A stretch of 64,000 nucleotides of DNA, taken from Minisyncoccia bacterium (GTDB taxonomy: Bacteria > Patescibacteriota > Minisyncoccia > Phycocordibacterales > UBA9973). Below are positions 7,722 to 44,866 of the stretch, piece by piece; position 1 is the first letter of the stretch; every line of letters starts with the position of its first letter. The stretch is taken from contig JBBRTD010000002.1 of NCBI GenBank assembly GCA_038244685.1, forward strand, positions 2,924 to 66,923. The letters run 5' to 3'. The notes beneath the pieces are model-generated. The model was given only the letters and a program-made list of their open reading frames with translations, searched no databases and was not told the DNA's origin. The position numbers and the translations under genes were made by a program.

Positions 7722-8291
7722 TTATAGAAATATTTTATCTGTGAGCTCCTCTAGACCTTTTCTATCTTTAGTAGAGAAGGGAATTATGGCATGTTCACTG
7801 CCTACCATTTTTTTAAGTTCTGTCATTTTTTTGTGATATTCAGATTGTTTCAACTTATCTATTTTATTTGCAACAATAATAAAATCTTTATTATGATTTA
7901 TAAGTTCATTAAACATCAGTATATCTTTTTCTGTCATACCAACAACTGCATCTATAATTAAAACTACTTTTTTTTGAGTATGAATTGAATTAAAAAGATA
8001 TGAATCGATTAGTTCACCAATTTTTTCACGGCCGAGACCTGACGATCTAGCAAATCCATATCCAGGTAAGTCTACTAGATAAAATTCTTTATTAACAAGA
8101 AATATATTTATTTCTTGAGTTCTACCTGCAAATGAACTCGTACGAGAAATACTACTTCTTGTAAGTACATTTATCAGGCTTGATTTGCCGACATTTGAGC
8201 GGCCAATGAAGGCAATTTGAGGTATACCATCGGCTAGTATTTCGTCATCACCAACGAGACCCTTCATAAACTTTGTAGATGTTATTTTCAT
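7722..8291 (-). CDS. engB: Ribosome-biogenesis GTPase EngB/YihA/YsxC
   Basis: G1 GRSNVGKSSLIN, G3 DLPGYGFA and G4 NKID motifs, with length and order typical of EngB. Confidence 0.85.
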   Translation of the reverse strand: MKITSTKFMKGLVGDDEILADGIPQIAFIGRSNVGKSSLINVLTRSSISRTSSFAGRTQEINIFLVNKEFYLVDLPGYGFARSSGLGREKIGELIDSYLFNSIHTQKKVVLIIDAVVGMTEKDILMFNELINHNKDFIIVANKIDKLKQSEYHKKMTELKKMVGSEHAIIPFSTKDRKGLEELTDKIFL

Positions 8292-8364
8292 AGATATATT
8301 TGTATATTATAACGCAATAATAAGGCATTCTATAAAAATATAGTTGCCTTAATTTTTATTTTTG

Positions 8365-8437
8365 TGGACCTTAGCGGACTCGGACCGCTTACCTCCTCAT
8401 TGCAAATGAGGCGCTCTACCAGATGAGCTAAAGGCCC
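8365..8437 (-). tRNA. tRNA-Ala (anticodon UGC)
   Basis: The reverse complement reads GGGCCTTTAGCTCATCTGGTAGAGCGCCTCATTTGCAATGAGGAGGTAAGCGGTCCGAGTCCGCTAAGGTCCA. It forms a cloverleaf with a G3:U70 pair (Ala identity element) and anticodon loop TTTGCAA. No CCA is encoded. Confidence 0.85.
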
Positions 8438-8500
8438 TCAACTAATTAATAATTTAATTAGGATACTCCTATCTTACCGTATTTTTATTTTTTTGCAAGA

Positions 8501-8545
8501 TGTATACAGAGCCCAACCTCAATGGTAGAAGTTGGGCTCTGTATA
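8501..8545. other. Perfect 14-bp-stem hairpin (atacagagcccaac...gttgggctctgtat) between the NRAMP gene and tRNA-Ala. It may be a terminator, but its orientation is ambiguous.
   Basis: Inverted repeat seen directly. The T-run lies on the plus-strand 5' side, so it does not form a canonical terminator for the minus-strand gene. Confidence 0.4.
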
Positions 8546-8556
8546 ATTATTCAAGT

Positions 8557-9861
8557 TTAAAATAAAGAGTAAATAGCGGCGATAGCAGTAACTCCCATAA
8601 GAATTGTTGCGGTCCATCCTAGTATTCTTATAATTAAGGAATTTTTAAATTCACCCATAATTTTTTTACTACTACTTATTTTAACAATAAAAATAAGTAT
8701 TACTGGAGCTACGATACCATTTGCAATGGCTGAGTACAACAGAGCTTTTATAGGGTCAATACCGATAAAATTAAGAAGTATACCAATGACAATTGAGATA
8801 GCGATAACTCCATAAAAAGCATGGGCTGTTTTGTATTTACGATATAAACCTTCTCTCCATCCGAAGCTCTCAGATATAGCATAAGCGGTAGATCCAGCCA
8901 AGACGGGTATCGCAAGTAGTCCTGTGCCTATTATACCAATAGCAAATAGAAGGGTGGCAAAGTGACCAGCAAGAGGCTCTAATGCCCGTGCTGCATCAGC
9001 TGCTGTTTCGATGTTTGTAATTCCATTAACAAAAAGAGTATTTGAACAAACAGCAATAATAAAGAACATGACAATATTAGACAGGAACATTCCCACCCAA
9101 ACATCAACACGCATTTCTTTTATTTCAGTATTGTTTGTACCTTTTCTTGATCTTATTGTTTTTTTACCATCGAGTATCTCTTCTTCAATTTCTTCTGATG
9201 TTTGCCAAAAAAATAAATAGGGAGATATTGTTGTGCCTAATACTCCAGTAATAAGAAGAATTTGAGTTTTAGAAAATGTAATTTGTGGAATAAGTCCATC
9301 ATGCAACAATGTTGACCAATTCATATGAATAATAAAGCCTGTAATTATATAGGAGAAAATAGCCAACACTAACCATTTTAGATATTTAGTATATATACGG
9401 TAGGGAACAAATATTTCTAAAAGTAATCCAGATATGCCAGTAAATATAACTAGAAATACAAATGAGGCTCCAGGGGCAATAAGTTCAATTGCTTTTGCCA
9501 TGGCTCCTAAATCAGCTCCAATATTTAATGTATTTGCAAAAAATAAAAGTATAGTACAAACATAAAGTATTTTTTTTGAAAAATTATGTTTTATATTTGC
9601 GGCTAGTCCTCTACCTGTGACTAAAGCTATTCGAGCACACATTTCTTGAACAGTAGCGACGAGAGGGTAGACCCAAGCAGCTAGCCATATAAGACTTGTG
9701 CCGTATTGGGCTCCTGCTTGTGAATATGTAGTAATACCAGAAGGGTCATCATCTGCTGCGCCCGTAATTACTCCTGGGCCAATTTTTTTTAGATAATCCT
9801 TAGTTTCTTGTAATAGGGATTCTTTTTCTTTTATTTCGTTCATCTGTTTGAGATATTCCAA
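8557..9861 (-). CDS. mntH: NRAMP-family divalent metal (Mn2+/Fe2+) transporter
   Basis: GAADDDPSGITTYSQAGAQYG matches the Nramp DPGN...QAGAQ signature region. The protein has ~11 TM segments and is 434 aa. Confidence 0.8.
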   Translation of the reverse strand: MEYLKQMNEIKEKESLLQETKDYLKKIGPGVITGAADDDPSGITTYSQAGAQYGTSLIWLAAWVYPLVATVQEMCARIALVTGRGLAANIKHNFSKKILYVCTILLFFANTLNIGADLGAMAKAIELIAPGASFVFLVIFTGISGLLLEIFVPYRIYTKYLKWLVLAIFSYIITGFIIHMNWSTLLHDGLIPQITFSKTQILLITGVLGTTISPYLFFWQTSEEIEEEILDGKKTIRSRKGTNNTEIKEMRVDVWVGMFLSNIVMFFIIAVCSNTLFVNGITNIETAADAARALEPLAGHFATLLFAIGIIGTGLLAIPVLAGSTAYAISESFGWREGLYRKYKTAHAFYGVIAISIVIGILLNFIGIDPIKALLYSAIANGIVAPVILIFIVKISSSKKIMGEFKNSLIIRILGWTATILMGVTAIAAIYSLF

Positions 9862-10019
9862 TTTGTAATTGGGAGCTATCTGGTGAATTATTATTAATAA
9901 GACAAACTTTATAAATATTTTTAATATTCCGTAAATGCTATTTTACATTTATAGTGGAATAGTTATATAAGTTTATTATACTATTTTATTTGAATTTGAT
10001 ACAATATTAAGATAATCTT

Positions 10020-11459
10020 ATGGCCCTAAATAAACCTAACAAAATTCAGATAATTAAGTATGCTCCACCACCACCTGACCTTCCCACTCTTGGTAGAGTA
10101 GATCCTGGAGATGTGGCTTTTATCGGCCGAACAAACTATGTTGCTTCTTTAGAGGAAAAGAGGTTTGTTTTTGGTATTAAGCGTATCGATAGAAGACGAC
10201 ATATGTATATTATCGGCAAGTCAGGAGTAGGTAAATCTAAACTTCAAGAATTAATGATTCGTCAGGATATAGCTTATGGTCATGGTGTTTGTGTCATTGA
10301 TCCTCACGGAGAACTTATCGAAGATATATTAAATTTTATTCCAGAAGATCGCATTGAAGATGTTTGTATTATTGATCCTGGGGATGTAGAATATCCTTCT
10401 TCTTTTAATCCACTTTCAAACATTGATCCTACTTTTAAACATCAGCTTACTCAAGGATTGATAGAAGTTTTACGTAAACAATTTGGTTCGAATTGGTCTC
10501 CGCGTCTTGAGCACGTTTTTCGCTTTACCGTTCTTGCTTTGCTTGATTATCCTCATGCCACAATGCGTGGAATGATTTCAATGCTAACCGACCGAAATTA
10601 TCGTCAGAAGGTTGTTGAATATATACAAGATGATATGGTTAAACGTTTTTGGGCTATTGAATTTGCTGATTGGTCTGAGAAATTTGATACGGATGCGATT
10701 ATTCCTTTGGTGAATAAACTTGGGCAGTTTTTGTCTGATCCGATGCTTCGTAATATTTTTGGACAGAAAGAAAATAAAATTGATATTGAAAAATTAATGA
10801 ATGAACAAAAAATTCTTTTGATTAATCTTTCAAAGGGAAAAATAGGGGAGGAGAATTCCTCTTTCTTTGGGTCAATGTTTTTAACAAAAATTAAACAGGC
10901 TGGTATGGCCCGCGCCAAATTAGAGCCAAAAGACCGCGCTGACTTTTATCTTTATGTTGATGAATTTCAGAATATTGTGACAGATACATTTGAGAATATT
11001 CTTTCTGAAGCTCGTAAGTATGGATTGAACCTTGTTATTGCTCATCAATATATTGCTCAGCTTTTACCGAAAGTTCAACAGGCGGTACTTGGAAATGTCG
11101 GATCAATCGTTACTTTTCGTGTTGGCGGTGATGATGCCACTAAGTTGAAGCCAGAGTTTGCTCCAGTCTTTGATGTAAAAGATATGATTAACTTAGGTGT
11201 GGGAGAATTTTATATTAAAATGACAATAGATGGTGAAAGTTATGATCCATTTTCTGGAGAGACATTGCGTGTTCTTCCTGCGACACATCCATCTTATAGA
11301 CAAAAAGTTATCGATGCGTCACGCCGTAAATATTCTATTTCCTCTGGTGATGCTCAGAAGCTAATTATCGAAGAAGAAGCTACTATCATAAGATCAGCTC
11401 AAGAAAAAGCTGCTATTTCAGAAAATAAAGAAGAAAAAGAAAATCAGCCTCTTATTTAG
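10020..11459 (+). CDS. VirD4/TraG/TrwB-like P-loop ATPase (type IV secretion coupling-protein-like DNA-binding ATPase domain), with no N-terminal TM anchor
   Basis: Walker A IIGKSGVGKS, a DPHGE motif shortly after it, and Walker B YLYVDEFQN followed by AHQ. It is paralogous (~50% identity by eye) to the 13039-15243 protein. Confidence 0.55.
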   Translation: MALNKPNKIQIIKYAPPPPDLPTLGRVDPGDVAFIGRTNYVASLEEKRFVFGIKRIDRRRHMYIIGKSGVGKSKLQELMIRQDIAYGHGVCVIDPHGELIEDILNFIPEDRIEDVCIIDPGDVEYPSSFNPLSNIDPTFKHQLTQGLIEVLRKQFGSNWSPRLEHVFRFTVLALLDYPHATMRGMISMLTDRNYRQKVVEYIQDDMVKRFWAIEFADWSEKFDTDAIIPLVNKLGQFLSDPMLRNIFGQKENKIDIEKLMNEQKILLINLSKGKIGEENSSFFGSMFLTKIKQAGMARAKLEPKDRADFYLYVDEFQNIVTDTFENILSEARKYGLNLVIAHQYIAQLLPKVQQAVLGNVGSIVTFRVGGDDATKLKPEFAPVFDVKDMINLGVGEFYIKMTIDGESYDPFSGETLRVLPATHPSYRQKVIDASRRKYSISSGDAQKLIIEEEATIIRSAQEKAAISENKEEKENQPLI

Positions 11460-25073: not shown

Positions 25074-25376
25074 ATGGGATTCAAATCATATATAACAAAA
25101 AAAGCTCTTCAAATGAAGGGAATGTCTGCTGAACAAGCAGAGAAAATAACAAAACAGCTTGAAGAAAATCCAGATCTTGCTGAGAGTTTAAAGGCTCTCG
25201 AAGCAAATAAAGAAGTTAAAGAACTTTTTGAAAAAATTACGAAAGAGATAGAAGAAAAGAAAAAAGCAGGTACAGCAGAGCAGTATGCGGCTGTTCTTGT
25301 TATGGGTAAATATAAGGCTGAGATAATGAAGCACCGTGAAGCCTTAGCTCCACTCATGAGTTTAATGCAGAAATAG
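25074..25376 (+). CDS. Hypothetical small helical protein (K/E-rich)
   Basis: ORF only. Confidence 0.3.
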   Translation: MGFKSYITKKALQMKGMSAEQAEKITKQLEENPDLAESLKALEANKEVKELFEKITKEIEEKKKAGTAEQYAAVLVMGKYKAEIMKHREALAPLMSLMQK

Positions 25377-25387
25377 TTTTAAGTTTT

Positions 25388-25909
25388 ATGTACAGAAAGT
25401 TTAAGCATAAAATTATCACAGTTTCTGACAAAATGCAGAAGGGCTATAAGTATGAAATTACAGAGCCCTTTGGTAAAAACTTTCAAAAAGATTTCCGTCC
25501 AGACTTAACTCCTAAGCAAATGCTTGCTCTTGGAGTTTTTGGTGGTAAGTATATGACAGATTGTAAAGATGAATTTCCAAAAGATTGGTTTACAAAAGCT
25601 AAACTTTGCTCCGAAATTCATGATCCTAAATTAAATTATTTTGGTGTAAATGCGAGTTCTTCACTTGCAGTTTGGAGGAAGAATGGCTGGATTTACAAAG
25701 AAGACCCTCGAGGGTGGTTTCAGTGGTATTGTCGATATTATATGGGAAGAAGGTTAAAAGAAGAAGATATTAGACAAATAAAAAGATGGCGTGCTATTAC
25801 TCGCCATATTGTTCAGATAACTTTAAATTGTAAGCCTGGAGATTTAACTTGCCGGCGAAAACAAAGACAAGCTGTCCTTCATTGGGCCTATGATAGTCGA
25901 AAAATTTAA
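25388..25909 (+). CDS. Hypothetical conserved-looking protein (W/Y/C-rich)
   Basis: ORF only. No motif recognised. Confidence 0.35.
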   Translation: MYRKFKHKIITVSDKMQKGYKYEITEPFGKNFQKDFRPDLTPKQMLALGVFGGKYMTDCKDEFPKDWFTKAKLCSEIHDPKLNYFGVNASSSLAVWRKNGWIYKEDPRGWFQWYCRYYMGRRLKEEDIRQIKRWRAITRHIVQITLNCKPGDLTCRRKQRQAVLHWAYDSRKI

Positions 25910-25927
25910 ATTTGTTATAATCAATTT

Positions 25928-26326
25928 ATGAATAATACTACTTCTTGGTTTGAACAACTTAAAAAGCCATCATGGGCACCACCATCTTATCTTTTTGGTC
26001 CAGTTTGGACAGTTCTTTATATTGTTATTGCTATCTCTTTTGGTTCAGTTTTTTATAAAGTATTTAACAAACAATTACCAATTATAATAGCTTTGCCTTT
26101 TATTCTAAATTTGATTTTCAATTTTTCTTTTACTTATTTTCAATTTGGTATAAAAAATAATGTTTTAGCCGCAATAGATATAACTTTAGTTTTAGTTACT
26201 TTAGTATGGGCCATGATTGCTATCTATCCATATTTTAGATGGATTGCCCTTGTAAATATACCGTATCTGCTTTGGGTTTGCTTTGCAACAGTACTTCAGT
26301 TTACAATTACGTACTTAAATAGGTAA
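25928..26326 (+). CDS. TspO/MBR (tryptophan-rich sensory protein) family membrane protein
   Basis: WFEQLKKPSWAPPSYLFGPVWTVLY matches the TspO N-terminal signature. Trp-rich TM helices. Confidence 0.7.
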   Translation: MNNTTSWFEQLKKPSWAPPSYLFGPVWTVLYIVIAISFGSVFYKVFNKQLPIIIALPFILNLIFNFSFTYFQFGIKNNVLAAIDITLVLVTLVWAMIAIYPYFRWIALVNIPYLLWVCFATVLQFTITYLNR

Positions 26327-26333
26327 TTACATA

Positions 26334-26366
26334 AAAAACAGCCCCGCAATAGCAGGGCTTTTTTTA
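26334..26366. terminator. Bidirectional terminator hairpin (cagcccc gcaatag cagggc + T-run)
   Basis: Inverted repeat plus T-run between convergent genes. Confidence 0.55.
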
Positions 26367-27038
26367 TTTTGTTAGAACAATAACCTTAAGGCATTGTTCT
26401 CTTGTACCTTTTGGGTAAAAGTAGTTTTCTTCATCATTGCTTCCACCACCACCGCTAGCAGATTCTCCTTTTTTATTTCTGTATGTATATACAAAAGAAT
26501 CGGAGTCTGCTAACACTTTGGATACATTTTCTGGCACACTTAGTGTACTAATGCCTTCATTGTAGAAGACACAGATTTTAAGTGGAATTCCAAACTTAAG
26601 AGACCTCTTACTTTGGTAGGGATCTATATCTTTCGACATAAAAACGTAACCATCATATTTCGGTGCATTGTTTAAGTTTGGAAAGCTTTTTCTGAATTTG
26701 TAGACGAATACAAGAATTCTTCTTATTTCTACTTCGCTAAACATATTTGCTTCATATTGTTGTAAATCTGAAGTGATATATTTAGTTTTCAGTAGAATGT
26801 ATCTGAATTCATTTTTAAAATTAATAGGAACCAACCAAGAGGTTGAATCTTCTATTAATTCCTTTTCGCCGTACAGAATAGGAATCTCCTCAATCCCTGC
26901 TTCTTTACATGAGATAAACTTTTGCCCTAAAATTCTTTGGGCTTTTTCATTTGTCACACCTTGTCCGTGTGTTGCCTTCATTAGTAACAATAGAGCTGCT
27001 GCTAATATTAATGCAAATATAAAATTTTTTCTCCTCAT
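26364..27038 (-). CDS. Hypothetical secreted protein (signal peptide)
   Basis: N-terminal MRRKNFIFALILAAALLLLMKA signal peptide. Confidence 0.4.
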   Translation of the reverse strand: MRRKNFIFALILAAALLLLMKATHGQGVTNEKAQRILGQKFISCKEAGIEEIPILYGEKELIEDSTSWLVPINFKNEFRYILLKTKYITSDLQQYEANMFSEVEIRRILVFVYKFRKSFPNLNNAPKYDGYVFMSKDIDPYQSKRSLKFGIPLKICVFYNEGISTLSVPENVSKVLADSDSFVYTYRNKKGESASGGGGSNDEENYFYPKGTREQCLKVIVLTK

Positions 27039-34233: not shown

Positions 34234-34488
34234 ATGAAAACCTTTAGTGAAAAAGTTTATGATGTCGTTCGAAATATTCCCAAAGGGAAGTTTTTGACAT
34301 ACAAAGAAGTTGCCAAGAAGGCAGGAAGTGAGAAGGCTAGTCGGGCAGTTGGAAATATTTTGCATAAAAATTTTGATCCGAAAATTCCATGCCACAGAGT
34401 CATCCGCTCTGATGGTAAATTTGGAGGGTACAATAGGGGGAGTCAAAATAAAAAAGAATTATTAAGGAAGGAAGGAGTAGTTTTTTAA
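34234..34488 (+). CDS. Methylated-DNA-protein-cysteine methyltransferase, C-terminal DNA-binding/active-site domain only (84 aa)
   Basis: PCHRVI active-site motif with a helix-turn-helix context (FLTYKEVAKKAG...RAVGNIL). Confidence 0.75.
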   Translation: MKTFSEKVYDVVRNIPKGKFLTYKEVAKKAGSEKASRAVGNILHKNFDPKIPCHRVIRSDGKFGGYNRGSQNKKELLRKEGVVF

Positions 34489-34537: not shown

Positions 34538-34826
34538 GGCGTGAGCACACCTCGACATGCTATTCCTTTCTTCTTTACCATAAAGCTTCCTCCCATTCAA
34601 AAAAGGGGAATAGATTATGGATTTAGGTCAATAAAAACTATTTTAAAATAAGTATATTTATAGATAGTAGGTTTTTCCTATTTTTTGTGGCAATTTTTCT
34701 GCCCATATTTCGGTCAAATTTTAGAGAGAGGGGGTCACCCCTTCGCTTAGGCCCCCGCCTGTGTTTTTAAAATAAGTAGTGGTACCTGTGTCTAGGGATG
34801 TGTATTTTAAAAGGTTAATTTAATGG

Positions 34827-36884
34827 TTGGAAAATAGCCCTTTTTATGTCATTATTAAGGAATATATGGAATCATCAAAAAATAAAAAGACATCTGTAAA
34901 GTCATTAAAAAGTAATGTTAATGAAAGAGGGTTACGTACTGTGGTAAAAAATCTTCTCAAGCAAGATAAAAGACTTTGGACTTCGGAAGGTAAGTTGATT
35001 GAAAATAAATTGATTGAATTTGTACAAAAAGATGATGAAAATATTATTAAACTTCTATTAAGTGATTCCTTAACAAAAGATGCTTTTTTCCAAAAAATTT
35101 CTTCAATTTTTGTATTTAAAAAAGATGACTTTATTAACTTTGAAACGATGAGTGAGTTTTTGAATGGTTCTTATACTAATTATAGTAAACATATAGGATT
35201 GGCAAATAATTACTCTTTATTAAAAAATGCCGGTGAAGTAGTTCTGAATTTTCCATACAAGGATTGTTTTTTAGAAGGAGGGCAAGAAAAAGTAAGTGAA
35301 GGGAGAGATGAAATATTTTACAATAAAATTCTTGCAAGAGAAGAAATAAATAGACTTGAAGAAGAAAAAGTTTTTACGAACTGGATTAAATATACTGAAA
35401 AAGGGGGGAAAAAGGTGGATTCATTTGACCATAAAAAAGACAATCTTATTTTAAGAGGAAATAATTTATTAGCTTTATATTCATTGCTTCCAAAATATAG
35501 AGGACAAATAAATTTAATTTATATTGACCCACCATACAATACTGGAACAGATGATTTTAATTACAATGATAATTTTAATCATTCTAGTTGGCTAGTATTT
35601 ATGAAGAATAGATTGGAGGTAGCAAAAAAGTTATTAAGAGATGACGGTGTTATTTTTGTTCAGTGTGACGACCACGAACAAGCTTATTTGAAGGTTGTAA
35701 TGGATGAAATTTTTAATGGTGGATTTATAAATAGTATTGCTGTAAAAATGAGTGAGTTGTCTGGGACAAAAATGGCTCATTATGATAAAAAATTACCTAA
35801 AATAAAAGAATATTTATTAGTATATAAAAAAGTAACGTTTAAATTAAGAGATGTTAGAATAATAAAAACTGAGTGGGATGACGAATATAATTTGTATCTC
35901 GAGAATTTTGATGATAATTTATTAGATTTAATTACCGAGTCGGATGAAAATAAAATTGATGAAGTAAATAAAAAACTATTAAATGTAAAAATTTTAGGGA
36001 TAAAAGAAGCATTTAATAAATATAAAAATAAAAATGAAGATTTTGATGATTTTAGATTTAGGAATATAAACTTTATTGTTAGAACATCGCCATCATCCAG
36101 TGTAAAAAAAATTGCTGATATTCTTAATATCAAAAATCAAATTGTTTATGCATTGCTTTCAAAAAGAGACAAAAATATTATTATAATTCGTACAGATTAT
36201 AATAAAGCAGTAAAAGACCCAAGAATACAGATTGTCTTTGCTCGAGATTCTTTTGAACAAAAAATAGGCGATATGTGGACAGATATAAATACTACAGGTT
36301 TACATACTGAGGGGGGAGTTACTTTAGAAGGAGGAAAAAAACCCGAGAAATTACTTAACAGAATTATTGAAATGAGCACAAAAATTGGTGATATTGTTTT
36401 AGATTATCATTTAGGAAGTGGAACGACCTGTGCTGTTGCTCATAAGCTGGGTCGTAAATATATAGGTATTGAGCAATTAGACTATGGAAAAGATGACTCA
36501 GTTATAAGGTTGAACAATGTTATTAAGGGAGACAAATCAGGCATATCAGGGTTAGCTGATTGGAAAGGAGGAGGGTCATTTGTTTATGCTGAACTTGCAC
36601 AATGGAATGAAGAATATATCCAAGAAATAAAGAAAGCCAAAACAGTTAAAGATTTGACTAAAATCTATGAAAAAATGATTAAAGAAGCATTCTTTGTTTA
36701 TACTTTTGACCAATCAAAATGGAATAATAAAAAATTTGAAGAGCTTACAATTGATAACCAAAAGAAAATTCTTTTCGAGCTTCTTAATATGAATCATTTA
36801 TATATAAATTATAAAGATATAGAGGACGCGACTTATAAAATTTCTAAAGAAGATATAAAACTCAATAAAAATTTCTATGAGTAG
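34827..36884 (+). CDS. mod: Type III restriction-modification system methyltransferase (Mod), N6-adenine, beta-class
   Basis: Motif IV IYIDPPYNTG occurs before motif I (DYHLGSGTTCAVAHKLGRKYIGIE), with a target-recognition region in between. The 8-bp overlap with the downstream res gene is typical of Type III mod-res operons. Confidence 0.85.
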   Translation: MENSPFYVIIKEYMESSKNKKTSVKSLKSNVNERGLRTVVKNLLKQDKRLWTSEGKLIENKLIEFVQKDDENIIKLLLSDSLTKDAFFQKISSIFVFKKDDFINFETMSEFLNGSYTNYSKHIGLANNYSLLKNAGEVVLNFPYKDCFLEGGQEKVSEGRDEIFYNKILAREEINRLEEEKVFTNWIKYTEKGGKKVDSFDHKKDNLILRGNNLLALYSLLPKYRGQINLIYIDPPYNTGTDDFNYNDNFNHSSWLVFMKNRLEVAKKLLRDDGVIFVQCDDHEQAYLKVVMDEIFNGGFINSIAVKMSELSGTKMAHYDKKLPKIKEYLLVYKKVTFKLRDVRIIKTEWDDEYNLYLENFDDNLLDLITESDENKIDEVNKKLLNVKILGIKEAFNKYKNKNEDFDDFRFRNINFIVRTSPSSSVKKIADILNIKNQIVYALLSKRDKNIIIIRTDYNKAVKDPRIQIVFARDSFEQKIGDMWTDINTTGLHTEGGVTLEGGKKPEKLLNRIIEMSTKIGDIVLDYHLGSGTTCAVAHKLGRKYIGIEQLDYGKDDSVIRLNNVIKGDKSGISGLADWKGGGSFVYAELAQWNEEYIQEIKKAKTVKDLTKIYEKMIKEAFFVYTFDQSKWNNKKFEELTIDNQKKILFELLNMNHLYINYKDIEDATYKISKEDIKLNKNFYE

Positions 36885-39495
36885 CACTTCTTTATATCAA
36901 AAATATGATATTCGTGTAGAAGATGGGGTTATAGATGTTAGTTCTATACCATCTTTTATTTCAGATAATCTCCACTCTCGTGTTGTTTTACGACCTTATC
37001 AAGAAGAGGCACTTTCTCGTTTTATTTATTATTTTGAAAAAGATAAAAATAAACTTACTCCGGTACATCTACTTTTCAATATGGCCACAGGGACTGGTAA
37101 AACAATTATAATGTCTAGTGTAATGCTTCATCTTTATACAAAAGGATATCGAAATTTTGTATTTTTTGTTGATAAGGACAATATTGTACAAAAAACAATT
37201 GAAAATTTTACAGACAACACAAGCCCTAAATATAGTTTTTCACCATCAATAGTAATAGATGGAAAACGTGTTTTGGTTCGTAAGGTAGAGAATTTTTCAG
37301 ATAGTGATAATAAAGCAATAAATATCAAATTTAGTACTCTTGCAGGGCTACACAGTGAAATTACCTTTCCAAAAGAAGAAGGGTTATCTATGGACGATTT
37401 TAAGCTCAGAAAAACTGTATTTTTATCAGATGAAGCCCATCACGTTAATGCTTCAACAAAAAAGAAAGAATTAGATGAAGAGGAAAAATCTTGGGAATAT
37501 ACTGTAATGAAATTACTTAATTCAAATCTTGAAAATGTTTTATTGGAGTTTACTGCAACAATCGATGAAAGACACGAAAAAATAGTTGAGAAATATTCTG
37601 ATAAAATAATTTTTAAATATGACCTAAAAAGATATATAGCTGATAAATATTCTAAAGATATTTTCTTATATAAAACTCCAGAGGGGATAGATGACCGTAT
37701 TTTACATGCTCTTATTCTCTCTCAGTATCGTCGTAAGTTAGCGGGGAAATATGGGATGTCCTTTAAACCAGTTGTACTTATAAAATCTAAAACAAAAAAA
37801 GAAAGTGAAAATACTGAAATACTTTTCTATAATCTATTACAAAAATTGAAAGTAAATGATATAGAACGCATAGAAAAACAAGTAAAAGTAAATATAGATA
37901 ATAAGGTAGCAGTTAAAGCTTTTGATTTTTTTAAAAAAGAAGGTATTTCTTTTGCTGAACTTATTAAAGAACTCCAGATTGAATTTTCAAAAGAAAGAAG
38001 AATACAAATGAATGATGATAGTCAAAAAGTTGCGCAGTCTAAGCTCTTGAATTCTCTTGAAGAAGAGTCTAACAAAATTCGTGTTATTTTTCAGGTAAAA
38101 AAACTTGATGAGGGTTGGGATGTATTAAATCTTTTTGATATTGTCAGAGCATATGAGACACGAGATACTGGTACTATAACTACGTCCGAAGCTCAGCTTG
38201 TGGGAAGAGGGGCGAGATATTATCCATTTATTATTGAACCAAGCCAAGAAAAAGATAAAAGAAAATATGACGAAGAGCCAGAAAATGAACTTAGGGTTTT
38301 AGAACAACTTTATTATCATTGTCAGAATGACCATAGATATATCTCTGAAATCAAAAATGCTCTTCAAAAAACCGGAATAGATTTAGATAATAAAAAGATG
38401 ATTGAACTTAAATTAAAAGATTCTTTCAAAAAATCTTTATTTTATACCCAAGCATTTGTATATACTAATAAGCAACAAAAAAAAGATAGGAAAAATATTA
38501 AATCATTAAAAGATATAGATTTGGACAAATTAACACATACAGATTCTCTTTCAACTGGAGTATCTGGAGTAGAAGGTATTTTTGCAAATAGTACCGAAAA
38601 GACCTCATCAAATAATGTTAAAATAGTTAGCGAAAAAATTTCTGTAAAAGAAATACCTATTCACATAACGAGAACTGCTATTGATACTTTTCCATTTTTT
38701 GATTTTGCTAATTTAAAAACATATTTACCCAACATAAAAAGTCGTGATGAATTTATCACATCTGACTCATATGCCGGAAACATTCGCATTGAAATTGATG
38801 GCCCAGAAGACAGGATAAAGAATATAAAAAATGATAATGAATATTTATACTCAATTTTAATAAGAAAAGTATTTGAAGATTTGAAAAATAAGATTGTATA
38901 TAACTCTTTTGAATATGAAGGGACTGATGAATTTATGCCTTACGAGATTAACAAACTTATTAAAGATAAGATTATTCAAATTGAAGTAAATAATGAAAGT
39001 GATAAAGAAAACGGCAAAGCTATGGGTGGAACTGAAACAGAGATTCATCTTGATTTATCAAATATTGATTGGTATTCACATACTGAGAATTATGGAACAT
39101 CTGAAGAAAAGTACCTCATAAAGGCAATATTGGGATTTGTAGATTCTATCAAGAGTAAATACGACAATGTTTATCTTATTCGTAACGAGAGACAAGTAAA
39201 GATATTTGATACCAAGGGGCGTGCTATTGAACCTGATTTCTTGTTATATACTATAAAAAAGAATCAGAAAGACACCTCTTACTATCAATTATTTATTGAA
39301 CCAAAGGGAGCACACTTATTGAAAGAAGATTCTTGGAAGGAGGATTTTTTGAAAGGATTAAACAAAAAATATAAAGGAAAATCTAACTTAATTGAAACAC
39401 CAGAATATTATATATTTGGTTTGCCTTTCTTTAATGAACAAAAAACAAAACGAGAATTTGAAACTGATTTAAAAAAGAAACTCCAGCTAAAATAA
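36877..39495 (+). CDS. res: Type III restriction enzyme Res subunit (SF2 helicase + C-terminal endonuclease)
   Basis: Walker A MATGTGKT, DEAH box LSDEAHH, helicase motif VI QLVGRGAR. 872 aa. Translationally coupled to mod. Confidence 0.85.
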   Translation: MSSTSLYQKYDIRVEDGVIDVSSIPSFISDNLHSRVVLRPYQEEALSRFIYYFEKDKNKLTPVHLLFNMATGTGKTIIMSSVMLHLYTKGYRNFVFFVDKDNIVQKTIENFTDNTSPKYSFSPSIVIDGKRVLVRKVENFSDSDNKAINIKFSTLAGLHSEITFPKEEGLSMDDFKLRKTVFLSDEAHHVNASTKKKELDEEEKSWEYTVMKLLNSNLENVLLEFTATIDERHEKIVEKYSDKIIFKYDLKRYIADKYSKDIFLYKTPEGIDDRILHALILSQYRRKLAGKYGMSFKPVVLIKSKTKKESENTEILFYNLLQKLKVNDIERIEKQVKVNIDNKVAVKAFDFFKKEGISFAELIKELQIEFSKERRIQMNDDSQKVAQSKLLNSLEEESNKIRVIFQVKKLDEGWDVLNLFDIVRAYETRDTGTITTSEAQLVGRGARYYPFIIEPSQEKDKRKYDEEPENELRVLEQLYYHCQNDHRYISEIKNALQKTGIDLDNKKMIELKLKDSFKKSLFYTQAFVYTNKQQKKDRKNIKSLKDIDLDKLTHTDSLSTGVSGVEGIFANSTEKTSSNNVKIVSEKISVKEIPIHITRTAIDTFPFFDFANLKTYLPNIKSRDEFITSDSYAGNIRIEIDGPEDRIKNIKNDNEYLYSILIRKVFEDLKNKIVYNSFEYEGTDEFMPYEINKLIKDKIIQIEVNNESDKENGKAMGGTETEIHLDLSNIDWYSHTENYGTSEEKYLIKAILGFVDSIKSKYDNVYLIRNERQVKIFDTKGRAIEPDFLLYTIKKNQKDTSYYQLFIEPKGAHLLKEDSWKEDFLKGLNKKYKGKSNLIETPEYYIFGLPFFNEQKTKREFETDLKKKLQLK

Positions 39496-39498
39496 TAT

Positions 39499-39630
39499 AT
39501 GGATGAAGAAACATTTGAAATAGCTAAAGATAATGACTTAAGTTTAGATGAAGCAGAAGAGCTTCAGAGTGTTATAGAAGAGACAGGGCTTGATGCTGAT
39601 GAAGCCTTAGAAGTTATGCAAGAATTTTAA
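39499..39630 (+). CDS. Small, highly acidic 43-aa ORF (MDEETFEIAKDNDLSLDEAEELQSVIEETGLDADEALEVMQEF), not in the supplied ORF track
   Basis: ATG 4 bp after the res stop, and the stop lies 5 bp before the next gene. Net charge is about -14. Confidence 0.3.
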   Translation: MDEETFEIAKDNDLSLDEAEELQSVIEETGLDADEALEVMQEF

Positions 39631-39635
39631 TATAT

Positions 39636-39908
39636 ATGAAAAACTTTCTAAAAAGAACTTTATTTAAAATGGCTGACATTACTAATTGTGGCACCCCAAA
39701 TATAAAAATAGAAAAAGCCACGATTAAAGAAATATATGATGAAGTCATTTCTGATGTCCCATATTTAATAAAAATATCTCCAGCCTATATCCAAAGAAGG
39801 TATAAGGTTAATTATGAAATTGCATCACAGGTTATGGATTTACTTGAAGCCAATGGTTTTATAGGTCCAGCAGACGGAGCTAAACCTAGAGATATTATTA
39901 AAAGATAG
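39636..39908 (+). CDS. Stand-alone FtsK-gamma (winged-helix, KOPS-binding-type) domain protein
   Basis: KEIYDEVISDVPYLIKISPAYIQRRYKVNYEIASQVMDLLEANGFIGPADGAKPRDII matches the FtsK gamma consensus (...A...V......S.S.LQRRLRIGYNRAARLID.ME..GIVGP..GSKPREVL). Confidence 0.65.
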   Translation: MKNFLKRTLFKMADITNCGTPNIKIEKATIKEIYDEVISDVPYLIKISPAYIQRRYKVNYEIASQVMDLLEANGFIGPADGAKPRDIIKR

Positions 39909-39910
39909 AT

Positions 39911-40198
39911 ATGATTACTGATATCAAAAAACCAAAAAATAATATAGATATTGCTACCTTAATCAATCCTAGTTTAATTTGGAATGTAATTCTTTTTAAT
40001 TGTAACTGCCACACATTTGATACTGTAATTGAAGAACTGATGGAATCACTTGGTTGTTCTTATGCGAAGGCTTCTCAGTTTGCAAATGTTGCGGACCAGC
40101 TTGGCAGTGTCAAAATTTATGAAGGAGATAAGAAAAATTCTGAACGTATTGCTGATACATTAGGAAGAGCTGGTTTGATTGTGAAATTAAATCAATAA
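39911..40198 (+). CDS. ClpS-like adaptor-fold protein
   Basis: WNVILFNCNCHTFDTVIEELMESLG.SYAKASQFANVADQLGSVKIYEGDKKNSERIADTL aligns to the ClpS core ([24 protein letters not shown].Y....A.QLML.VH..G.A.........E.AE). Confidence 0.5.
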   Translation: MITDIKKPKNNIDIATLINPSLIWNVILFNCNCHTFDTVIEELMESLGCSYAKASQFANVADQLGSVKIYEGDKKNSERIADTLGRAGLIVKLNQ

Positions 40199-40203
40199 AT
40201 AAT

Positions 40204-40770
40204 ATGACTAAAAAAAGTTTAAAAGAATATTTTGATTTGGCCAAAGAACTAGAAAATAGTGGTCATGTTATTGATTCAGATTTTTTAAAAGAAAAATTAG
40301 GAGTTTCAGTTTGTAGAGCCAGTTGTTTGTTTTTTATGCTCCACAAAGGTGGATATTATAAAGATTTAGAACCACTTTCAGAGTTAAAAGAAATTCCTAA
40401 TTTAAAAGGTAAAAAAGAAGGTAAAAATAAATTTATAATTTTTACAGAAGATATGCCCCCTTATAAAGCGAATATATACTATGATGAAGAAATTTCTGAA
40501 GTAGACAAAAAACAATATGTTTCAATAGGAGTAGCTAGGGATATTAGTTTTGAAGATGTAAGACAAATAATCATATCTATTTACTGGGGCCTTAGTGAAA
40601 TTATAAAACAAACAAAAAATCATTTTATTAAGGAGCTTGAGTGTGGAAATGCTCAGTATTTCAAAGATTTTTATAAAGAGAAAGATAAAAAATATATTTT
40701 AAAGGATTTGAAAAAGACGAAATTTAAAGATATTCAAATTAAGTCAATTCTAAAATTACTAGAAATATGA
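40204..40770 (+). CDS. Hypothetical protein (188 aa, K-rich C-terminus)
   Basis: ORF only. Confidence 0.35.
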   Translation: MTKKSLKEYFDLAKELENSGHVIDSDFLKEKLGVSVCRASCLFFMLHKGGYYKDLEPLSELKEIPNLKGKKEGKNKFIIFTEDMPPYKANIYYDEEISEVDKKQYVSIGVARDISFEDVRQIIISIYWGLSEIIKQTKNHFIKELECGNAQYFKDFYKEKDKKYILKDLKKTKFKDIQIKSILKLLEI

Positions 40771-40795: not shown

Positions 40796-40958
40796 TAGAT
40801 ATCAGGAGTATGGCGAGAGCACTGGCTCAACGACCCATCAGCAACCCTTAGAGATAAGAAGGTGCTAAATCCAGCCAGATGATACACAAGTATTATCATG
40901 GAAAGATAAGACTAGTCATCTGTATCTTTCCTCTTATTAGAGGAATTTTTTAATTTAA
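40796..40958 (+). promoter_or_regulatory. SAM-I (S-box) riboswitch with intrinsic terminator, in the leader of metK
   Basis: gATATCAGGAG...GGCGAGAGCACTGGCTCAACGACCCATCAGCAACC...AAGGTGCTAAATCCAGCC...AGATGATAc matches the S-box core blocks (ATCAAGAG / GG.GGAGGGACUGGCCCGAUGAA.CCC.GCAACC / GGUGC.AAUUCC.GCAG / AGAUGAG). The P1 helix is TATCA/TGATA. A terminator (ttcctct tatt agaggaa + tttttt) lies at 40928-40951, just before metK. Confidence 0.7.
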
Positions 40959-40966
40959 TAACGTAT

Positions 40967-41932
40967 ATGAAAAAGACAGCAGAGTGTGTGAGTCCTATGC
41001 ATCCAGATAAGATCTGTGACTATATTGCAGATTGCATTTTAGATGCATATTTAGAAGGTGATAAAGAAAGTCGTTGTGCCATAGAAGTAATGGGAGGGCA
41101 CGGATTAATAACTATAAACGGGGAAGTAACCTCAAAAGCTAATCCAGATATAGAAAAAGTTGTACAAGGTTTAGTTGGGACCAACTTTAAAATAATTTCT
41201 AATATTGTTTTACAGAGCCCACAAATTGCTCAAGGTGTTGATATTGGTGGTGCTGGTGATCAAGGAATAATGAAAGGTTATGCTACTAACGAAACACCAG
41301 ACTTGTTACCACTTGAATATGTATGGGCGAGAAGTTTATGTAATTATATTTACAAGAAGCATCCATATGATGGGAAGACTCAAGTTACTATTATTGATGG
41401 ACGTATAGATACTATCGTTGCAAGTTTTCAAAATGTTTCAAAAGAAGTACTCCATAGTCTAGTTCTTGATTGGTATGGTGAGTATGCTGCACAATCTAGA
41501 AAGATATTCCAATTTAATATTTTTGTTAATCCTGCTGGGGATTGGACTCAGGGAGGATTTGATGCGGATACTGGATTATCTGGAAGGAAACTTATTATAG
41601 ATAACTATGGACCAGAAATAACTATCGGTGGAGGTTCTTTCTCTGGTAAGGATTATACAAAGGTGGACCGCTCAGGTGCATATATGGCAAGAAAGATTGC
41701 TGTTGATTTATTAAAGAAACATAATGCAAAAGAAGTTTATACAAAACTTGCATATGCTATTGGTCAACCAGAACCAGTAATGGCTGTAGCAGTTATAGAT
41801 GGAGTTGAAAGTGAAATTACTGGTTATGACTTAACTCCAAGAGGAATATATAAACATTTAAAATTAGATCAAGTTGAATTTAAAAAAACTTGTAACTGGG
41901 GTCACTTTGGAAGAGATTTTGAATGGGAGTAG
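40967..41932 (+). CDS. metK: S-adenosylmethionine synthetase (compact, 321 aa)
   Basis: MHPDKICDYIADCILDAYL (compare GHPDKIADQISDAVLDAIL), GAGDQGIMKGYATNET, GGGSFSGKDYTKVDRSGAYMAR, and C-terminal GHFGRDFEWE. Confidence 0.85.
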   Translation: MKKTAECVSPMHPDKICDYIADCILDAYLEGDKESRCAIEVMGGHGLITINGEVTSKANPDIEKVVQGLVGTNFKIISNIVLQSPQIAQGVDIGGAGDQGIMKGYATNETPDLLPLEYVWARSLCNYIYKKHPYDGKTQVTIIDGRIDTIVASFQNVSKEVLHSLVLDWYGEYAAQSRKIFQFNIFVNPAGDWTQGGFDADTGLSGRKLIIDNYGPEITIGGGSFSGKDYTKVDRSGAYMARKIAVDLLKKHNAKEVYTKLAYAIGQPEPVMAVAVIDGVESEITGYDLTPRGIYKHLKLDQVEFKKTCNWGHFGRDFEWE

Positions 41933-44263: not shown

Positions 44264-44337
44264 CAGAGGTTGCTTAGACGTCCAACGTCGACGTAAGACG
44301 TTGTACGTCTTGGATTTGCAACCTCTGATTTTTTATT
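44264..44337. terminator. Long nested hairpin (cagaggttgc ... gcaacctctg enclosing agacgt..acgtct and caacgt..acgttg sub-stems) followed by a T-run; bidirectional terminator
   Basis: Perfect 10-bp outer stem, inner palindromic segments, then gattttttatttc. Confidence 0.65.
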
Positions 44338-44866
44338 TCTTATTAAGCTCTCTGTTTCTGTGTTCTTCTTGTTGTTTTTTAAGTTCAATTACTTCTTCTA
44401 TCAGTTTGCCCATTGTATCTTCGATTCGAGTTAATATTTCTTCGTCTTTTTTATCTTCTTTTTCTTCTTCCTCATCATCTTCTTGAATATCTTCCACATC
44501 TTCCTGAATCTCATCAACATCTTTTTGAATATCTTCCACATCTTCCTGAATCTCATCAACATCTTTTTGAATTTCCTCGACATCTTCAGCAATCTCATCA
44601 ACATCACGAGCCACAGCATGGAGCCTTCTGGCTTGACGGTTTACAGACATTTGGATAAATATGGATAGATAAATTGCTTCGAGTGAGACTATTGTTGTAA
44701 CTACAAGTAATATCTCTTCAAATGGTATACCAAAAAAATACAATACAAATGATCCAATGAATAATAATGTATGGATAAGTAGAGATTCAGTCGAGCCGAT
44801 GGAGCGAGTTGCTCTTAGTGCTATTTTTTCAATTGAATCTAGAGATTTTTTCTTTAATTGCTTCAT
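44333..44866 (-). CDS. Small 2-TM membrane protein with a tandem 14-aa acidic repeat (DV[DE]EIQ[KE]DVEDIQ...) and a poly-E/K tail
   Basis: N-terminal hydrophobic helices, then ...DVDEIAEDVEEIQKDVDEIQEDVEDIQKDVDEIQEDVEDIQEDDEEEEKEDKKDEE. Confidence 0.55.
   Translation of the reverse strand: MKQLKKKSLDSIEKIALRATRSIGSTESLLIHTLLFIGSFVLYFFGIPFEEILLVVTTIVSLEAIYLSIFIQMSVNRQARRLHAVARDVDEIAEDVEEIQKDVDEIQEDVEDIQKDVDEIQEDVEDIQEDDEEEEKEDKKDEEILTRIEDTMGKLIEEVIELKKQQEEHRNRELNKK
44470..44610. repeat. Tandem 42-bp repeat (two full units at 44489-44530 and 44531-44572, plus degenerate flanking partial units) encoding the acidic 14-aa repeats
   Basis: atcttccacatcttcctgaatctcatcaacatctttttgaat occurs twice in a row. 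Confidence 0.8.

Follow-up and report, generated by a model that had tools for sequence, protein, structure and literature searches.

What do four small genes do that stand closely packed behind a Type III restriction-modification (R-M) operon, and do they form one module with it? The question is raised by a 64,000-nucleotide (nt) stretch of contig JBBRTD010000002.1 of a Minisyncoccia bacterium, hereafter called the window, in which mod and res are followed on the same (+) strand by four open reading frames (ORFs). These encode an ultra-acidic microprotein of 43 amino acids (aa), named pep43 and predicted to form three helices (39499..39630), a stand-alone FtsK-gamma-like winged-helix mini-protein of 90 aa (39636..39908), a divergent ClpS-like protein of 95 aa (39911..40198) and a 188-aa protein of a small uncharacterised family (40204..40770). 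According to our best reading, mod-res and the four genes make up a defence island acquired by horizontal transfer, at about 34.75-40.75 kb, with the four genes as its variable 3′ tail. The tail consists of portable small genes that recur in varied combinations beside unrelated defence operons of Patescibacteria. Among them, pep43 marks the junctions of defence islands, and modules are exchanged with breakpoints at its start or its stop. We consider it very probable that the following hold jointly: the genes are real, both domain assignments are right, the link is to R-M and is not specific to Type III, the tail is a mix-and-match assembly, pep43 is a junction gene, and the ClpS-like and 188-aa proteins are partners. 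Taken as a whole, the island tail together with the mechanism set out below is the best explanation we can offer, and it is offered tentatively.

Composition of the tail

All four ORFs are, as judged from their conservation, real genes and not chance ORFs. A first-pass annotation of the window had described them as co-directional and tightly packed behind res, with gaps of 3-5 bp; order, direction and packing stand, and the actual gaps are 3, 5, 2 and 5 nt. With the 8-nt overlap of mod and res included, the distances from mod to the 188-aa gene are -8, 3, 5, 2 and 5 nt. No terminator-like site was detected from mod through the end of the 188-aa gene, the next one being the hairpin of an S-adenosylmethionine (SAM) riboswitch. 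Because no terminator hairpin lies between mod and the 188-aa gene, the six genes apparently form one transcription unit, and the small tail genes are probably co-transcribed with mod-res.

The annotation had also taken the four genes for one module, and this did not survive. When 65 fetched loci were searched with tblastn and hidden Markov models, the full set was found in the window only, and elsewhere the genes occurred in varied orders and combinations, pep43 mostly without the other three. Its statement that this accessory set is undescribed was borne out, as no curated family or paper was found that describes the combination. Literature searches on FtsK-gamma and ClpS in defence islands, on acidic self-protection proteins of R-M systems and on Patescibacteria defence likewise returned no description of these genes.

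pep43 at the joints between defence modules

The peptide encoded directly behind res had been noted as extremely acidic, which is correct, with about 14 D/E, which is too few: it has 17 D/E and one K in 43 aa, giving a net charge of -16.5. The family comprises about 70 homologous clusters at 65-86% identity, almost all of them with a length of exactly 43 aa, and 15 columns of its alignment are invariant. Relatives carry the labels Patescibacteria or Paceibacterota, and the window sequence itself is AT-rich. Codon-position entropy in the family is 0.66, 0.40 and 1.26 bits at positions 1, 2 and 3; the third position is 2-3 times more variable, and selection therefore acts on the protein. The sequence flanking pep43 is unconserved, and no conserved non-coding sequence was found at its junctions. 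The AlphaFold2 (AF2) model is a three-helix bundle (pLDDT 94; helices at residues 3-11, 16-29 and 33-42).

No match to pep43 was obtained in Pfam, NCBIfam or PHROGs. A profile search of the PDB gave nothing significant (best E 0.11; Topo V HhH repeat 0.2), and the same holds for Foldseek (best E 2.3). Designed helical repeats, the TAP UBA domain and the Topo V HhH repeat were considered as fold candidates and set aside, all being non-significant. A weak lead is the PADLOC candidate defence protein PDC-S48, of which residues ~240-272 are matched by 11 of 36 pep43 members (alignment A1; best E 0.004); remote homology or a common acidic-helix composition could account for this. Variants of 60 aa with a third repeat unit occur in loci L038, L051 and L055, and two copies are pseudogenes, one with an in-frame stop (L046, 327) and one truncated (L053, 1985).

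The junction property emerged from an all-against-all blastn comparison of the loci, which gave 140 pairs that were similar over pep43 and had flanks of 150 nt or more on each side. In 129 of these, similarity was limited to pep43 ± 45 nt. Seven pairs were similar from the pep43 ATG onward in the downstream direction, in one pair similarity entered from upstream and ended 6 nt past the pep43 stop, one pair was similar on both sides, and two were left unclassified. L044 and L048 are 94% identical from 1 nt 5′ of the pep43 ATG to the contig end and have unrelated upstream cassettes. L012 and L061 have DUF2779 and pep43 in common (1.6 kb, 89%) up to a break right past the stop codon, beyond which they differ, and L060 and L061 share pep43 and a C5-methylase operon with different sequence upstream. 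L061 thus consists of the left side of L012 and the right side of L060, an apparent re-assortment with pep43 as the joint. A mosaic test on these three loci for a crossover inside pep43 gave a gradient of the expected sign, but a weak one. In L023, two diverged copies (1051-1182 and 3072-3203) bracket a three-gene nuclease cassette that encodes a 203-aa protein, an SNase and a 123-aa protein, and in L037 a tandem pair is found (719-1024). Since selection is clearly on the protein, recombination at pep43 is best seen as a consequence of its conservation.

What stands next to pep43 was analyzed in 43 non-redundant loci with 45 copies. The gene 5′ of pep43 is co-directional in 35 of 38 loci, at a median gap of 9 nt. 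Among 78 proteins encoded upstream, Pfam assigned ResIII (8), SWI2_SNF2 of HsdR (5), DUF2779/Cas4-like (5), Methylase_S of HsdS (4) and PDDEXK_1 (4), and further Eco57I, N6 methyltransferases, T5orf172, GmrSD, ThsB_TIR, SNase, NYN, HNH and PIN; PADLOC agreed (REase_I 4, Specificity_I 4, Cas4 5). R-M or defence genes lie immediately 5′ of pep43 in all nine loci with long annotated context, and of the roughly 34 loci for which upstream information was available, at least 23 have a firm restriction, nuclease or defence domain on that side. The two sides of the gene differ strongly, with defence domains in ~36 of 78 upstream versus ~5 of 44 downstream neighbours (Fisher p = 6e-5, on approximate counts).

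The link to Type III mod-res that had been proposed therefore holds in a wider form only. pep43, the gamma mini-protein and the ClpS-like protein are all linked to R-M or defence genes in unrelated contexts, and a Type III-specific association was ruled out, as Type I, Type IIG-like, GmrSD/TIR, Cas4-like and other nucleases are partners just as often. None of the three proteins has a match in IMG/VR, INPHARED or PLSDB. Because pep43 is met again and again where gene clusters of many kinds of antiviral defence are joined, it is a candidate for an undescribed general accessory of bacterial immunity in the ultra-small Patescibacteria.

One Type III locus, L016 on a Hainich groundwater contig, has a further peculiarity: a SocA/Panacea antitoxin-domain gene and a gene for a 171-aa partner converge on pep43 (8127-9125, - strand), and the opposite side of the mod-res pair carries genes for a serine recombinase and an HTH_17 excisionase-like protein.

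The low-GC island and the metK hotspot

The composition profile delimits a low-GC island at 34750..40750 (unstranded) that contains mod, res and the four small genes. Its GC content is 0.24-0.33, mostly 0.26-0.30, versus 0.33-0.36 in the flanks (~0.34 on each side), and the drop from ~0.34 to 0.26-0.30 occurs immediately 3′ of a gene for an 84-aa protein with an MGMT/Ogt-like DNA-binding domain (34234..34488, +; Pfam DNA_binding_1 2.6e-30), which marks the housekeeping side on the left. The Type III identity of the operon follows from a Mod signature co-encoded with a helicase-nuclease Res subunit. The methyltransferase gene mod (34827..36884, +) matched Pfam N6_N4_Mtase (1.2e-41) and TypeIII_RM_meth (2e-14) and PADLOC MTase_III (2.3e-180), and the restriction subunit gene res (36877..39495, +) matched Pfam ResIII (9.5e-28) and, over its full length, PADLOC REase_III (1.4e-136).

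Ten flanking ORFs, located within ~15 kb on each side of the island, were scanned for domains and proved to be housekeeping genes; ORFs at 25074-27038 were not scanned individually. On the left, besides the MGMT-like protein, there are a two-component pair, a glycosyltransferase and a cell-wall deacetylase; on the right there are metK, ychF, a HAD-like ORF (outside the domain scan) and Sua5/YrdC. Among the ten scanned ORFs there was no clpA or clpC and no Xer-type recombinase, serine recombinase or integrase, and a search for dif-like, att-like or flanking direct repeats at the island found short AT-rich chance repeats only.

The right boundary of the island is the SAM-I riboswitch of metK (40796..40909, +; Rfam RF00162, 50.4 bits) with its terminator-like hairpin at 40928-40945. 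It is followed by the SAM synthetase gene metK itself (40967..41932, +; an ORF whose homologues have Pfam S-AdoMet_synt domains) and by ychF, both core genes. A SAM riboswitch lies 3′ of pep43 or of a pep43-bearing tail in five loci, the window, L001, L008, L012 and L035. It begins ~30-190 nt past pep43 in L001, L008 and L035, and past an intervening ClpS-like gene in L012. The next gene is metK in the window, L008, L012 and L035, not in L001, and MetK is 72-85% identical in L008, L012 and L035. In four of the five riboswitch loci the upstream defence system differs from one locus to the next; L035, a short contig, has small unannotated ORFs only. The island thus sits in a recurrent hotspot just 5′ of the SAM-riboswitch/metK locus. 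With no terminator between the R-M operon and the riboswitch, read-through into the SAM-sensing leader is therefore possible, and the R-M operon is itself SAM-dependent.

In L001 (6762-8409), an intact SAM riboswitch (64.7 bits) directly follows pep43 and precedes small genes instead of metK. Their products are proteins of 80, 66 and 92 aa (the last one Cys-rich), two FtsK-gamma proteins (109 and 92 aa) and a hydrophobic peptide of 41 aa, and SAM may therefore control these accessory genes.

A tentative mechanism and its main competitors

In the mechanism that we propose, pep43 would act as a nucleic-acid mimic on the DNA-binding surfaces of co-encoded or resident DNA-targeting enzymes, or would bind one conserved cellular partner. 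It would thereby buffer restriction, either by protecting self DNA during the establishment of a new system or by holding the nuclease in check. As pep43 is the sole shared sequence, homologous recombination might re-assort defence modules at this gene. The strongest form of the proposal, in which pep43 is a universal portable joint microprotein that supplies both a generic mimic and the homology for module swapping, possibly after natural transformation, and forms a toolkit with the other tail genes, is rather improbable. If it were true, Patescibacteria would possess an integrase-free cassette-exchange system for immune genes, and the ClpS-like/188-aa and gamma proteins would be further island-tail regulators.

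A number of points weigh against the island-tail reading and its mechanism. Concerning the protein, it is charge and context alone that speak for DNA mimicry, and a monomer of 43 aa is small for a DNA mimic. D2, E4, D13, E18, D32 and E38 are invariant with no exchange of D for E, and so a specific partner fits as well as mimicry. Co-expression of a nuclease with its inhibitor needs an extra layer of control, and none was found. Concerning the neighbourhood, about one third of the genes upstream of pep43 are without annotation, and the partners on that side include RNases or unknowns (NYN, PIN, a weak HEPN match). pep43 is sometimes island-internal with a second R-M pair 3′ of it, and its function may therefore lie at the level of the island or mobile element and not of one nuclease. 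The locus sample is biased, consisting of metagenome contigs of which many are short, and the per-locus defence calls for L020-L055 derive partly from cluster membership matched to aggregate counts. Close spacing is weak evidence for an operon in compact genomes, all four genes stand together in this window only, and the context of the 188-aa family (>3 kb of sequence) comes from only one distant relative. Finally, many relatives have an element backbone (SymE, a single-stranded DNA-binding protein (SSB) with LOOT RNA, S49 peptidase, serine recombinase) a few kb away, and pep43 might belong to the border of such a mobile element.

This last possibility leads to the competitor that survives best. 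It holds that pep43, and perhaps the gamma and ClpS-like genes, are edge genes of a cargo hotspot of Patescibacteria integrative elements that provide ArdA/Ocr-like anti-restriction on arrival, the window being a remnant without backbone. We judge this unlikely, though it deserves serious consideration. Serine recombinases, Prim-Pol/D5/AAA_25 primases, SSB after LOOT RNA, SymE and S49 peptidase are indeed found within a few kb of pep43 or gamma in L001, L004, L008/9, L012, L016, L023, L061 and L065, and an S49 peptidase is the next or next-but-one gene 3′ of pep43 in L020, L044, L046 and L053. Seven of the nine pairs with extended homology are conserved downstream from the pep43 ATG, and the extreme negative charge resembles that of known anti-restriction DNA mimics. 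What counts against it is that the window contains none of the backbone block genes (SymE, LOOT RNA with SSB, S49 peptidase, serine recombinase), that the scanned flanks are free of recombinases, and that pep43 is absent from the virus and plasmid collections IMG/VR, INPHARED and PLSDB. In addition, pep43 lies co-directionally 1-20 nt behind defence genes and does not resemble an early unit of a leading region, S49 peptidase is 33-59% identical between sublineages where pep43 is 65-86% identical, and in L009 the recombinase element is on the far side of metK from pep43.

The RNA of this backbone was located in five loci. LOOT RNA (RF03000, 58-94 bits) lies at 11857-11978 in L001, 13740-13860 in L012, 12451-12576 in L004, 11025-11156 in L008 and 9735-9849 in L023. 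In L001 and L012 it stands ~40 nt 5′ of the SSB gene, in a block of x83, x179, SymE, x112, SSB, S49 peptidase and serine recombinase.

It is less probable still that there is no functional link and that the small genes, lineage-specific but otherwise ordinary genes of the chromosome, lie by chance beside a hotspot of defence insertion. In the metK clade, identities of pep43 and MetK to the window are 77/85% for L012, 72/73% for L008 and 70/72% for L035. pep43 identity thus tracks MetK identity, as is expected of co-inheritance with the core flank, and L044 and L048, with pep43 and downstream sequence in common and differing upstream cassettes, fit this explanation as well. A fixed chromosomal gene is difficult to reconcile, however, with the many unrelated positions of pep43 and the 129 of 140 pairs that have pep43 alone in common, or with its duplication within 2 kb in L023, the tandem in L037 and the decayed copies in L046 and L053. 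DUF2779 and pep43 travel together (L012, L061) and part from the rest right past the stop codon, the upstream/downstream asymmetry in defence domains is strong, and the gamma and ClpS-like genes likewise recur beside defence genes in differing contexts.

The ClpS-like protein and its 188-aa partner

The island-tail reading extends to the two distal genes of the tail. A ClpS-like core without adjacent clpA or clpC had been recognized in the 95-aa protein, and this was confirmed: the match to Pfam ClpS PF02617 (E 7.7e-8, 32.5 bits) passes the cutoff of 23, and no such gene is among the scanned flanks. The protein is not a bacterial ClpS equivalog, since the NCBIfam models gave 16 bits versus cutoffs of 117 and 158. 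Among solved structures it comes closest to Plasmodium ClpS and to the ClpS-homology domain of UBR2 (E ~1e-3). In ClpS, acidic residues after a conserved Asn hold the alpha-amino group of the N-degron. The corresponding motif is NDEVHTY in UBR2, NDEHHSY in UBR1 and NDDIHNF in Plasmodium ClpS, versus NCNCHTF in the window protein, in which the acidic pair after the conserved Asn is absent and a Cys/His site stands where the N-degron pocket would be. C31-x-C33-H34...C49 is kept in all four family members (window, L002, L012 and the fusion protein P0095). The protein is ~64% identical to its relatives in two other loci. Its gene adjoins Type III systems (window, L012) or a Type I system (L002) and directly follows pep43 in L012. 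No Clp ATPase gene is paired with it; in the window it stands between the genes for the gamma mini-protein and the 188-aa protein, and in the relatives it adjoins pep43, metK or HsdR.

The 188-aa protein was without match in Pfam, NCBIfam, PADLOC and PHROGs, and among 1.84 billion cluster representatives it has ~20-23 relatives. Its AF2 model scored well (pLDDT 94, pTM 0.81), and Foldseek searches of PDB and BFVD with it found nothing significant, only helix-turn-helix (HTH)-like fragments of 36-50 residues. The PDB profile search returned designed helical proteins only, none of them significant. P0095 (L056, 110-931, on a 1.7-kb contig) is a protein of this family fused to a C-terminal ClpS-like domain with the pattern C-x-C-H...G-C (INCHCHFF...LGC). 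Because of this fusion, the ClpS-like and 188-aa proteins can be regarded as a two-part unit, and the 188-aa protein is likely the partner of the ClpS-like protein. No second locus has matching neighbours around the 188-aa gene, the only close relative being on an 815-nt contig, and a distant relative is flanked by a CoiA nuclease/Type I R-M cluster on one side and by a Schlafen-AlbA_2 gene on the other. A 186-aa gene in L008 was tried as a further relative and ruled out (hhalign probability 0.2%).

The ClpS-like/188-aa pair would probably serve as a module for ligand binding and sensing or for redox chemistry through its Cys/His site, and not for reading N-degrons. A competing explanation, to which we give little credence, sees in the pair an adaptor that hands Res/HsdR or pep43 to a Clp-type protease. 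In E. coli, Type I restriction is known to be controlled by proteolysis, HsdR being degraded in a ClpXP-dependent manner. This precedent, the Pfam assignment to the ClpS fold family and the position of the gene beside Type III and Type I systems, in L012 directly past pep43, are in favour of the adaptor. Against these points stand the replacement of the acidic pair of UBR1/2 and Plasmodium ClpS by Cys and Asn, NCBIfam equivalog cutoffs that are missed by at least ~100 bits, the lack of an adjacent Clp ATPase and the conserved C-x-C-H...C, which points to metal or redox chemistry.

The FtsK-gamma mini-protein

The assignment of the 90-aa protein to the FtsK gamma fold, without motor domain, was likewise confirmed. 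It matched Pfam FtsK_gamma PF09397 with E 3.5e-13 and 49.5 bits, above the curated cutoff of 30.6, and PHROG 13700 'FtsK/SpoIIIE-like' with 2.9e-12. The family profile matched the PDB structures of FtsK gamma (2j5o/2ve8, E 1e-3) and scored eukaryotic ribosomal protein eS25 about equally well. The ORF is bounded by stop codons, carries no motor domain and is thus not the appendage of an FtsK motor. Fifteen relatives were found, 59-83% identical and all of 67-96 aa; a scan of a genome collection gave two distant or partial matches only. Gamma-like domains without motor are known in phage proteins (phrog_13700 and others).

The N-terminus of the mini-protein consists of a conserved basic motif of ~28 aa (MKNF..CGTP..IQMEKA). 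In L008, a 52-aa ORF (9871-10029, MNNFFRKILIKITGIGWCGTPWIQMEKA...) represents this motif alone without the winged helix, and the motif is therefore apparently a separable module. The recognition helix reads NYEIASQVMD in the window and SYDIASEVID in the family consensus, compared with GYNRAARMIE in Pseudomonas FtsK. The basic residues of this helix through which FtsK binds the FtsK-orienting polar sequences (KOPS) are thus missing from the mini-protein, and the isoelectric point (pI) of the winged-helix part is 6.4. With this helix, and with the NCNCHTF pocket of the ClpS-like protein, the canonical roles of both domains look unlikely. A protein- or DNA-binding adaptor would be a more likely function of the gamma-like winged helix than that of a KOPS reader.

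The gene is a second portable element, rarer than pep43. It was well sampled in five loci, and its neighbours there are different sets of defence or R-M genes: a Type III system in the window, Type I and AAA_13 together with a ClpS-like gene in L002, T5orf172-ResIII/TIR/GmrSD in L001 and L004, and a D12 methylase, RE_AlwI and a reverse transcriptase (RVT) in L005.

Since in E. coli the gamma domain by itself is able to stimulate catalysis by XerD, it could be argued that the stand-alone gamma protein activates XerC/D or reads polar DNA motifs, and that the island is a Xer-dependent module (IMEX- or pdif-like). The significant Pfam match, the motor-less gamma-like domains of phage proteins and the recurrence of the gene at island junctions agree with this idea, which we nevertheless regard as very unlikely. 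The scanned flanks contain no Xer-type recombinase, flanking dif-like or direct repeats were not found, and the pep43 junctions show no conserved non-coding sequence. The basic residues of the FtsK recognition helix have been lost (DIASE/EIASQ versus NRAAR; winged-helix pI 6.4), and the recombinases near relatives are of the serine type, apart from one tyrosine integrase in L002. A suggested search for Xer and dif near 42-bp repeats of the window also came to nothing: the scanned flanks and repeats gave neither, and the 42-bp repeats are coding, belonging to a DUF1003 gene at 44333-44866.

Comparison with known systems

Several known systems resemble parts of the tail, and each of the nearest concepts (DNA mimics, C proteins, Panacea, hotspots, phage boundary sequences) differs from it in defining features. 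By analogy with the Ocr and ArdA mimics, which are likewise small, strongly acidic and tied to Type I and Type III restriction, DNA mimicry by pep43 is plausible. A generic mimic could also explain how one conserved pep43 serves many unrelated DNA enzymes. In contrast to Ocr and ArdA, pep43 has no sequence or fold match and only 43 aa, and its gene occupies the 3′ end of defence operons that belong to the host, with no match among the phages and plasmids of IMG/VR, INPHARED and PLSDB.

The ClpS-like protein shares with the ClpS adaptor and the UBR1/UBR2 domain its Pfam ClpS match, with UBR2 and Plasmodium ClpS nearest; it differs in NCNCHTF versus NDDxHxF/NDEVHTY, in not standing beside clpA/clpC and in its novel 188-aa partner, fused in P0095. 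With FtsK gamma, the KOPS reader and XerD activator, the mini-protein has in common the winged helix and the conserved wing GxxGxKPR, whereas it lacks the translocase motor and a basic recognition helix, has an added basic N-terminal motif and is found in defence islands.

The controller (C) proteins of R-M systems are a likeness of another kind, as small R-M-encoded proteins by which restriction is timed or limited once a system has been transferred horizontally. They belong to the Xre-type HTH regulators, and in Type II systems their gene usually precedes the R gene. In the window the small genes come after res, no Xre-like protein is among their products, and its charge keeps pep43 from binding DNA. 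Panacea (SocA/DUF4065) resembles pep43 in being one small partner family beside many unrelated toxic effectors, and has no homology to it. pep43 is 65-86% identical across its partners and does not co-diversify with them, which argues for a common target and not for effector-specific neutralisation in the manner of Panacea.

Defence hotspots of mobile elements and the linker sequences of phages also have variable cargo beside a conserved border and a short shared segment where modules re-assort. pep43 differs from these as a coding microgene under protein selection that occurs at many positions, often with no recombinase in the available sequence. Nor does the island have the features of an integron-like cassette system, given that no integrase is encoded in the scanned flanks, that the sequence flanking pep43 is unconserved and that flanking repeats are lacking. 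That pep43 acts as DNA, as a recombination site of the attC or phage-boundary type with an incidental ORF, would suit a gene that is the sole sequence common to the islands, has exchange breakpoints at its ends and brackets the L023 cassette with two copies, but is hardly credible in view of the variable third codon positions, the 43-codon frame with 15 invariant residues, the unconserved flanks, the lack of inverted repeats or a dedicated recombinase and the confident AF2 fold.

Patescibacteria (also known as the candidate phyla radiation, CPR) make up a large share of bacterial diversity. Most of them lack CRISPR and rely on restriction-type defences (PMC12455944). How dangerous restriction enzymes are controlled and exchanged in small genomes is the question on which pep43 bears. 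It accompanies nuclease or R-M operons of over ten kinds, is small enough to be synthesised and assayed directly against restriction enzymes, and would offer a cheap, testable handle on both control and exchange. If the proposed roles are true, the Cys/His ClpS-like protein fused to a 188-aa protein with no structural relative in PDB or BFVD would represent a new use of the ClpS fold. Were these genes only border genes of mobile elements, they would still be a practical marker for defence islands and new defence genes in CPR metagenomes.

Further features of the window

Two further observations concern the window. TraD/VirD4-type coupling-protein models of NCBIfam (best E 2.8e-15) matched two of its 48 larger ORFs. 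The DUF1003 gene mentioned above (44333-44866, - strand), which is unrelated to the island, encodes a membrane/coiled-coil protein of 177 aa with tandem acidic repeats (DVEEIQKDVDEIQEDVEDIQ...).

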